Part shown: positions 1,166 to 1,354 of the stretch, piece after piece | Layout of the letters: each line of letters begins with the position of its first letter | Numbering within the stretch: position 1 is the stretch's first letter | Notes under the pieces: generated by a model | The model's database searches: none | What the model saw: the letters and a program-made list of their open reading frames with translations, nothing else | Told to the model about the DNA's origin: nothing | Made by a program: the position numbers and the translations under genes | Source: Eledone cirrhosa | Taxonomy: Eukaryota | Assembly: GCA_964016885.1 (NCBI GenBank) | Contig: OZ024743.1 | Location: forward strand, 92,070,001 to 92,134,000 | Reading direction: 5' to 3' | Length of the DNA: 64,000 nucleotides

Positions 1166-1354
1166 AACGAAGGAAATGTGGTAAGGAACCAGGTGGACCA
1201 TAACGCACCAAAGTACTCAATACTTAGGGTAGTAGAGTGGGTAATAGGAACCAGTAAGACCCCGACGGCTGAGCTCAAGCCGTTTCGACGGCTAATTCAG
1301 AATTAGCCGTCGAAACGGCTTGAGCTCAGCCGTCGGGGTCTTACTGGTTCCTAT
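1166..1354 (-). mobile_element. Short Penelope-like terminal fragment (family A) with perfect 55-bp-arm palindrome
   Basis: 1244-1298 is the reverse complement of 1300-1354; flanked by (TA)n on both sides; homologous to 14070-14205 and 21639-21831. Confidence 0.75.

Follow-up and report, generated by a model that had tools for sequence, protein, structure and literature searches.

The window, a stretch of 64,000 nucleotides of the Eledone cirrhosa genome (assembly GCA_964016885.1, contig OZ024743.1, positions 92,070,001 to 92,134,000 of the forward strand), contains copies of a repeat, family A, two of which are palindromic. Copy 1 (1166-1354) leads from a (TA)n tract into AACGAAGG, then through a perfect inverted repeat and back into (TA)n, and copy 2 (21639-21831) has the same layout. 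Family-A copies end either at AACGAAGG (the T end, e1) or at GGAAC beside TA (the L end, e82), 81 nt apart. Element coordinates (e) were counted from the first A of AACGAAGG, and a window position in copy 1 equals 1165 + e. The features of copies 1 and 2 were as follows.

1035-1165, no strand: (TA)n target microsatellite forming the left flank of copy 1, read directly.
1166-1243, minus strand: 78-nt "tail" of the copy 1 T arm (e1-78), present in this arm only; it starts with AACGAAGG, the element 3' end and putative first start site of reverse transcription.
1244-1298, minus strand: inner T arm of copy 1, read as antisense on the plus strand; complement of parts of the ribozyme motif.
1299, no strand: centre base of copy 1 (e134), the first loop-II base beside the 3' strand of stem II.
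1300-1351, plus strand: L arm of copy 1 in sense orientation, with the 3' strand of stem II, GAAA (1312-1315), helix III and GUC.
1352-1390, no strand: (TA)n, right flank of copy 1, read directly.
21639-21773, minus strand: T arm of copy 2, an older or different subfamily (~90% identity to copy 1).
21774, no strand: centre base T of copy 2, at the same element position as in copy 1.
21775-21828, plus strand: L arm of copy 2, ending in TTTTCC beside (TA)n; the two arms are 96% complementary.

The arms of copy 1 (1244-1298 and 1300-1354) form a 55-nt inverted repeat with 100% complementarity, and those of copy 2 (21717-21773 and 21775-21831) a 57-nt repeat with 96% complementarity, each with a spacer of 1 nt. 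The ATA at 1244-1246 of copy 1 is ambiguous with the TA repeat. In the T arm of copy 1, the complement of the predicted ribozyme cut lies between 1263 and 1264 together with that of helix III, GAAAC is at 1282-1286, and the complement of the stem II 3' strand occupies 1289-1298. The centre base reads as an L arm 1 nt longer than the T arm. In the L arm, the predicted cut falls after 1334 and is followed by 17 nt more up to GGTTCC, where the arm ends at the fixed, putative second start site (e82).

A preliminary description had reported two self-matching palindromes that differ in sequence, with centres just 5' of GAA(T/A)TAGCCGTCGAAAC and short arms ending in TTCC followed by TATA. Direct reading of copies 1 and 2 bore out each of these points, and the sites at which the two copies differ (they are ~90% identical) were mirrored across both arms. 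A search for the 27-nt centre CGACGGCTAATTCNGAATTAGCCGTCG, exact apart from a free middle base, gave 505 sites in the 3.0-Gb genome and 0 for the reversed control, so that the pattern is far beyond chance. (TA)n flanked most of the family-A copies in the genome samples.

The centre had been placed in stem II of the ribozyme by comparison with a non-palindromic copy at 14017-14205 (copy 3). The region was right, but the start was not, as family-A homology extends over 13576-14205. At 13576, copy 3 is itself joined head to head with the inverted arm of a different Penelope-like element (PLE). The features of this part of the window were as follows.

12595-13555, minus strand: arm of another PLE (family B), inverted and 5'-truncated, that carries a reverse transcriptase C-terminus and a GIY-YIG endonuclease.
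13530-13597, no strand: head-to-head junction between copy 3 and the other PLE, with segments in the order B-A-B-A and a switch at the shared word GATAT.
13576-14205, plus strand: copy 3, a 630-nt T arm in sense orientation that ends in CCTTCGTT at (TA)n, delimited by sequence comparison.

At the junction, the family-B sequence is ...TTATGATATTTTCCC, as seen in 6 other copies, and that of family A is TAAGATATATTCGG. The GIY-YIG region of the family-B arm is broken by a frameshift and its Pfam GIY-YIG match is borderline (E 4e-4, 21 bits against a cut-off of 22.6); the 3' end of this arm adjoins a TG/TA microsatellite. Copy 3 contains the entire hammerhead-like motif at ~14018-14108, with the consensus cut after 14103, although copy 3 itself reads GCC and not GUC there. 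Compared at the sequence level, copy 3 is a chimera of two different elements, family A and family B.

A 215-nt query from copy 3 matched at least 2,819 candidate places in the genome, of which 40 were scored, with 98% identity. The homology between copies continued for >1.7 kb, and the repeat is thus much longer than the preliminary description supposed. On contig C1 we found a tandem array with a period of 3,543 bp and units 99.8% alike, each of which carries a 785-aa ORF on the ribozyme-sense strand. At the unit junction the T end abuts the 5' end of the next unit, ...CCTTCGTT being followed directly by ATCTAGC. There were 148 exact unit junctions, and 16 of the 30 that we examined continued for >1.5 kb upstream, that is, in tandem.

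The ORF had 642 homologues at E<=1e-5, one of which (39% identical) matched RVT_1 with an E value of 9e-6, below the cut-off. The nearest Atlas clusters of the ORF carried HTH_animal, RVT_1 and GIY-YIG, and the clusters with GIY-YIG scored 0.96-0.97. Pfam gave no match to the ORF even at E<=10, either in full (785-786 aa) or for both halves, and PDB searches with the ORF sequence and with a 24-sequence profile gave none. Direct reading revealed the motifs DKT, YRDD, CNCPDRSIC (CxCX5C), CNLC (CxxC) and CKH (CxH), plus a GIY-YIG core at the C-terminus (VIYQC...AYIGLT) that lacks CCHH. This C-terminus aligned with the family-B fragment of the window (BLASTP E 7e-4), itself borderline for Pfam GIY-YIG. 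These motifs lend modest support to a GIY-YIG endonuclease fused to the reverse transcriptase.

Together with the (TA)n targets, the motif set of the ORF (DKT, CxCX5C, no CCHH in the endonuclease core, CxxC and CxH) is the signature given for the Hydra clade in the accessible text of PMC8557442 (Craig et al. 2021), which, at the level of motifs, points to that clade. In the same source, PLE insertions are strongly 5'-truncated and often partial tandems, the 5' end "often" carries a copy that is inverted and 5'-truncated, a tail of 30-40 bp is present at one end only, and targets are (TA)n. Family A forms tandem and partial-tandem copies with pseudo-LTRs (pLTRs; the 3,543-bp arrays), carries next to its 5' end a 5'-truncated copy in inverted orientation (76 of 100 T arms, plus 15 long pairs) and has a tail of 78-81 nt in the T arm only. 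It thus shares with the Hydra-clade PLEs, as this source presents them, a single ORF with a C-terminal GIY-YIG domain, DKT in place of DKG, the CxCX5C linker, the absence of CCHH from the GIY-YIG core, CxxC and CxH, as well as (TA)n insertion, tandems with pLTRs, the inverted 5'-truncated copy and the one-ended tail. Four differences stand beside this likeness: a unit of 3.5 kb against "generally <3 kb", RWR against RWK, a non-canonical hammerhead core (A at position 8) against a canonical one, and a tail of 78-81 nt against 30-40 bp. As far as can be judged from sequence features, family A represents the 3' end of a PLE of 3,543 bp that has a Hydra-clade protein signature and targets (TA)n. 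The palindromes are the known PLE layout of two 5'-truncated copies head to head with the tail at one end.

Three helices around a core could be read directly in the hammerhead-like motif of family A. Helix I is ACCCC/GGGGU, helix II is CGGCUA/UAGCCG plus UUC/GAA, and helix III is CGGCU/AGCCG with the palindromic loop UGAGCUCA. Helix II is long and bulged, with a loop of 32 nt, and both GAAA and GUC are present. In the catalytic core, the first box is CUGAGAA or UUGAGAA where CUGANGA would be expected, so that position 8 is an A. No Rfam hammerhead reached the gathering score in the window, and none was found at E<=10 in 13900-14300. The minimum free energy fold of the region was not a hammerhead fold and was no more stable than shuffled sequences (z = -0.69). 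We therefore call this motif of family A a putative hammerhead, at the level of the motif. The metazoan PLE type I hammerheads in the available part of PMC4209133 (Cervera and de la Pena 2014) resemble it in their site in the pLTR, their type I topology, the long bulged helix II, the palindromic loop of helix III, the G10.1-C11.1 pair, GAAA and GUC. Family A differs from them in its core (CUGAGAA/UUGAGAA), its 32-nt loop II and the absence of an Rfam match. In copies with UUGAGAA, U3 may pair with A8, possibly as a compensated variant. A C3/G8 double change partly restores hammerhead activity according to the part of PMC11167929 at hand, and by analogy this rescue might extend to U3:A8.

The ends of family A were then counted in the genome. 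The exact T-arm word occurred at 8,106 sites and the exact L-end word at 7,916; a second subfamily, which includes copy 1, had 7,382 T arms. As an unbiased sample we used the first 100 T-arm matches on C1 (30 taken as loci and 70 by coordinate), which span the first 67 Mb of one chromosome, are anchored by an exact 27-nt word at e72-98, and were parsed against 13 natural long copies over a range of 480 nt. An inverted partner was present in 76 of the 100 T arms; 12 were long, with the partner past the parsed 480 nt, and 12 had no partner. The 76 partners comprised 69 of the L type (61 at the identical nucleotide), 5 that ended early, 1 odd one and 1 of the T type. The converse count gave the same picture, since among the first 30 L ends 27 had a T partner within 180 nt, 3 were long and 0 had an L partner. 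In almost every insertion, then, a T arm stands head to head with an L arm.

This near-obligate pairing bears on how the palindromes had been explained. According to the preliminary description, a single cDNA folds back on itself and rejoins (TA)n by microhomology. As a general route, fold-back is poorly supported by partners that are L-type in 69 of 76 cases and T-type in one, or by L arms that have T partners in 27 of 30 cases and L partners in none. Rejoining by microhomology fared no better. The L end is one fixed nucleotide in 61 of the 76 pairs, and longer L arms pass an internal CCATATATGG before they, too, end at e82; the L end is therefore not set by microhomology alone. It matches the second start site of reverse transcription and the "tail" that are known for PLEs from the accessible text of PMC11167929.

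We mapped the inner ends of the arms onto the element. The stem II 3' strand has its complement at e124-133 of the ribozyme map, and loop II begins at e134. T arms ended at e131-145, a zone of 15 nt, in 61 of 100 cases, with peaks at e138-139 (17) and e142 (15). This hot zone takes in the stem II 3' strand of the hammerhead and the first ~10 bases of loop II. The other T arms ended at e98-101 (7), at scattered positions from e75 to e128 (15), at e153-155 (3) or beyond e230 (14). L-arm ends peaked at matching template positions, e138 (12) and e142-143 (16). Since both arms stop at common template positions although their starts are 81 nt apart, it is the template, rather than the length synthesised, that sets the stop. 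Abortive synthesis limited by distance was ruled out on the same ground.

The second cluster coincided with a single nucleotide, the predicted ribozyme cut between GUC and G (e98/99), where 7 of the 100 T arms ended (e98-101). These are 7 of the 22 arms that end from e75 to e130, against ~1.6 expected if ends were spread evenly (binomial p = 8e-4). Within microhomology, the e98-101 ends are compatible with one nucleotide. This class of T arms is indirect support for cleavage in vivo.

Inversion centres are therefore clustered at e131-145 and do not scatter at random. The preliminary description, which had them fold back at one point of stem II common to the copies, was right about the region, a genuine hot spot, but it is a zone and not one point. 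The centre of the window copies (e133/134) was rare in the unbiased samples, at ~1 in 100 in one subfamily and 1 in 30, plus one e133/133, in the other; genome-wide, the 505 window-type centres compare with 3,199 arms that read through that place. The agreement between the centres of copies 1 and 2 is a modest coincidence inside a strong hot zone. We found no description of a junction hot spot in a PLE ribozyme hairpin in our non-exhaustive search of the literature.

We next compared the two arms of each element, where X denotes the T-arm end and Y the L-arm end of the 76 pairs. X exceeded Y+1 in 28 pairs, the two differed by at most one (|X-Y|<=1) in 22, and Y exceeded X+1 in 26. The L arm was the longer of the two, by up to ~1 kb, in 8 of the 15 long pairs from the first, biased set; in 5 it was the shorter, and 2 pairs had equal arms. 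As the L arm is often the longer one, it holds RNA-derived sequence that has no counterpart in the T arm. Either arm can also own the middle base, because the window-type centre base was T in 9 and A in 7 of 16 copies (the first 15 genome sites, one of them uninformative, and both window copies). A-runs beside the loop II UUU were mostly confined to one arm (loci L050, L147, L168 and L089), whereas locus L157 has them in both arms, where A/T runs of 9 and 7 mirror each other at the centre. Filler was absent from 31 of the 76 junctions, which then mostly showed microhomology of 0-3 nt, and 1-48 nt of filler, in some cases templated repeats, was present in the other 45.

The two main subfamilies, which are equally common, were not cross-paired in any of the 69 and 22 elements with L partners. 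One element paired with a third variant, and 1 of the 22 was discordant at a diagnostic site. Equal stops were in excess: among the 55 pairs in which X and Y both lie at e122-147, 21 had |X-Y|<=1, whereas shuffling gave 12.2 +/- 2.9 (p = 0.003; the remaining 21 pairs were excluded). Arm identity was compared over 53 elements that have clean L ends and arms sharing 25 bases or more: it was 96.1% within and 95.9% between elements, and 5 variants were common to both arms against 99 in one arm only. The homogenised arms that had been proposed are thus not borne out, and the mirrored differences between the window copies are subfamily differences of the source RNA. The proposal that palindromes form de novo at insertion holds, as junctions vary between copies of one subfamily.

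Taking these observations together, we consider, with a probability of roughly 0.7 on sequence-derived evidence, that the palindrome is a stub of a Hydra-clade PLE in (TA)n, made by target-primed reverse transcription from both cut ends on one RNA. The endonuclease of the element would cut both strands of the TA repeat. One 3' end would prime at the RNA site that gives the T end, and the other 81 nt upstream, which would give the L end. Two primings on one RNA would pair T with L and give both arms matching subfamily variants. Both reverse transcriptases would mostly stop at a barrier encoded by the template in stem-loop II, either structure or a bound protein; alternatively, they may run off RNA cleaved by the ribozyme. 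A template jump or end joining would then connect the two cDNA 3' ends, leaving 0-3 nt of microhomology or a short filler. A perfect palindrome such as 1244-1354 would result when both stops fall within one base, and a trailing enzyme that halts at a stalled leading enzyme could produce the excess of junctions with equal stops.

In a bolder version of this reading, which we hold only tentatively and would sooner doubt than accept, stem-loop II is a built-in stop for the reverse transcriptase at which two enzymes on one RNA meet and swap templates. Most insertions would then be dead, mirror-like stubs of 190 bp, and the hammerhead with the non-canonical A8 (U3:A8) would cleave in vivo before or during insertion.

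The excess of equal stops can also be read as copy-back. Here a T-primed cDNA would stall in stem-loop II, copy itself, stop at e82 and join the other TA end, with asymmetry arising through later central deletion, a known instability of palindromes. Near-perfect palindromes that are commoner than independent stops predict (21 of 55 against 12.2), the matching subfamily variants that both arms always carry, and the mirrored runs of L157 are all what copy-back would give. A cDNA that copies itself should, however, reach the T end, and only 1 of the 76 partners was T-type, while the exact stop at e82 is left without explanation. Near-equal arms were the minority (22 of 76), and an L arm that is the longer one in 26 of 76 pairs, by up to ~1 kb, is difficult to obtain from a copied T arm. 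The same applies to a centre base owned by either arm (9 against 7), to A-runs that are mostly one-armed, to filler of 1-48 nt in 45 junctions and to the two-element chimera at copy 3. Moreover, extension of both strands was seen in vitro in the part of PMC11167929 that we could use. Copy-back may account for some perfect palindromes, but as an explanation of the family it is improbable.

Another reading keeps two primers but takes the hot zone to be a set of RNA 5' ends, which would stem from transcription initiation or cleavage in loop II and from the ribozyme cut at e98. Reverse transcriptase would start at the 5'-proximal copy of the start site on a transcript led by the pLTR, and run off. 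Run-off accounts for untemplated filler and template jumping, 7 of the 100 T arms end at the predicted ribozyme cut, both arms stop at matching template positions, and the A-runs at e140-142 resemble stuttering at an end. An RNA start near e140 predicts, however, that the upstream pLTRs of full-length copies start there. Apart from the 16 of 30 junctions that are tandem (>1.5 kb), the other 14 ended at e21, 99, 100, 128, 136, 181, 236, 261, 274, 319, 551, 1035, 1368 and 1464, with only 2 of 14 in or near the hot zone (e128-136) and 2 of 14 at the cut (e99-100). Where X lies at the cut site, Y is mostly elsewhere. These 14 scattered pLTR ends do not support a fixed transcription start near e140, although the same two hot spots recur among them. 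We regard this reading as somewhat less credible still than copy-back.

The hairpin itself had also been considered as a mobile unit, a 190-bp palindrome that is copied as such and whose arms are kept alike by conversion. The same centre at 505 sites, and the 189-nt layout of copy 1 at 13 of the first 15 of them, are in keeping with such a unit. Yet unbiased samples rarely contain the centre (~1 in 100 and 1-2 in 30), the junction changes between copies of a single subfamily, and the arms show no homogenisation. At least 5 sub-variants carry this centre with their differences mirrored, which an inherited palindrome would not give. A mobile hairpin is thus contradicted and highly improbable. 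A palindromic master copy was ruled out, as the window-type centre is rare in the unbiased samples of both main subfamilies.

That an assembler made the palindromes at TA repeats is very unlikely, the least credible account of all: Logan contigs of ~80 nt, drawn from all copies, do stop at TA repeats without bridging the locus, but thousands of copies have exact T and L ends with different flanks, a read-derived contig of one run spans 1260-1340, and raw Illumina reads from three runs of another study cover 1298 beside the centre base 1299 (28, 10 and 4 reads at >=96% identity and away from read ends), reads that may stem from any of the 505 like copies and not necessarily from copy 1.

Insertion by two primings on one RNA has a partial counterpart in LINE-1 elements. 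In LINE-1 twin priming, or 5' inversion, both nicked strands reportedly prime cDNA on one RNA, and the products are said to be joined inverted, with microhomology and a variable second priming site. The segments are said to come from different, adjacent parts of the RNA, and hence no palindrome results. In family A, unlike LINE-1, both arms cover one RNA stretch and both starts are fixed.

The closer counterpart is PAc, a purified Poseidon PLE protein from Anolis (Frangieh et al. 2024, PMC11167929), which belongs to a clade other than that of family A. This work, the only biochemical study, is recent. PAc cuts both strands of an AT-rich target and extends them. It initiates reverse transcription at a pair of internal RNA sites that lie just downstream of the hammerhead, and it is predicted to be a dimer; the genomic tail is the stretch between the two start sites. 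Its start sites are not homologous to the target, whereas 2-3 nt (UAU, AU) of family A could pair with TA. The available portion of the study reports no stop zone in the hammerhead hairpin such as e131-145 in family A. The end products of family A both fit and sharpen this in vitro picture.

Several observations run counter to the preferred reading of target-primed synthesis from both cut ends. In the same portion of PMC11167929, PAc used either start site on either strand alike, which predicts T/T and L/L pairs that are almost absent from family A, where T and L are nearly always paired. Since the start sites are interchangeable in vitro, the step with one RNA and two primers is one that we infer. 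Two cDNAs of the same polarity cannot anneal, and a template jump or repair by the host would therefore be required to join them. Some copy-back events could underlie the excess of symmetric junctions, and subfamilies with separate periods of activity could likewise give arms of one subfamily. The tail of 78-81 nt also exceeds the 30-40 bp described.

The family-A palindrome is an ordinary stub of a known retrotransposon class in an insertion layout that has already been described. For annotation, short palindromes flanked by TA should be masked as PLE stubs; to call them hairpin genes, MITEs or assembly errors would be wrong. The genome contains well over 15,000 end products from a single PLE family, which provide in vivo support for two fixed starts and for extension of both strands. 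They add constraints that are absent from the available parts of PMC8557442, PMC11167929 and PMC4209133: each start is almost always used together with the other, the two arms have one RNA type as their source, and most syntheses stop either within one 15-nt stretch of the ribozyme hairpin or at the ribozyme cut. The insertion mechanism of PLEs is called undefined in the accessible text of PMC8557442, and the T/L pairing rule, the quantified stop zone and the run-off at the cut site are useful constraints on it.

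We examined the junctions of single family-A loci on contig C1 of the genome assembly G000. Runs of A (or T), from 5 to more than 20 nucleotides long, were found at the junctions of L050, L089, L128, L147, L157, and L168, and in each case they were placed exactly at the AAA of e140-142. Such runs would fit stuttering of a stalled polymerase at the loop-II UUU of the hammerhead-like motif. In the 76 inverted pairs on C1, only L135 (G000:C1:49858599-49861025) joined two T arms, which start from the 3' end of the element. Its T arm ends at about e134 and is joined to an inverted arm with a full tail, begun near the ribozyme cut.

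Two further sequences related to family A were found in the window:

55112-55262, divergent family-A relative, sense arm
59240-59274, family-A tail fragment, 35 nt

The sense arm has no inverted partner; its start falls inside the 3' strand of stem II, and both GAAAC and GUU|GGGUCC are present. The tail fragment has its CTTTGTT end at (TA)n.

The (TA)n tracts of family-A copies 2 and 3 also hold a second repeat family, unrelated to family A and directly adjoining both copies:

21842-22127, head-to-head pair, adjoining copy 2
14305-14550, single arm, adjoining copy 3

The pair carries about 57 nt extra in one arm only, and its outer ends are GAGGGTATTTTT... and ...CATCTTTTTTCC. The repeat appears to represent a further family of PLE type that follows the tail rule of family A.

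Further features of the window were as follows:

11976-12590, long compound TG/TA/CA microsatellite, adjoining the family-B arm at its 3' end
7741-10995 (-), open frame of 1,084 aa with reverse-transcriptase-like motifs
51158-51235 (-), EBv-sisRNA-2 match (Rfam, gathering level, 45.4 bits)
50801-50871 (+), tRNA-like sequence (44.1 bits)

Repeats of the TG/TA/CA type likewise follow other family-B copies. The open frame apparently belongs to an element of the LINE type that has no relation to family A. The EBv-sisRNA-2 match, 290 nt from the tRNA-like sequence, is a long perfect hairpin, probably a repeat hairpin that fits the Rfam family by chance.

On contig C2, the unit-junction word of family A occurred seven times with a period of 299 nt (G000:C2:356030073-356031895). 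This short, gene-less tandem array contains the end and the start of the family-A element and is reminiscent of non-LTR retrozymes.
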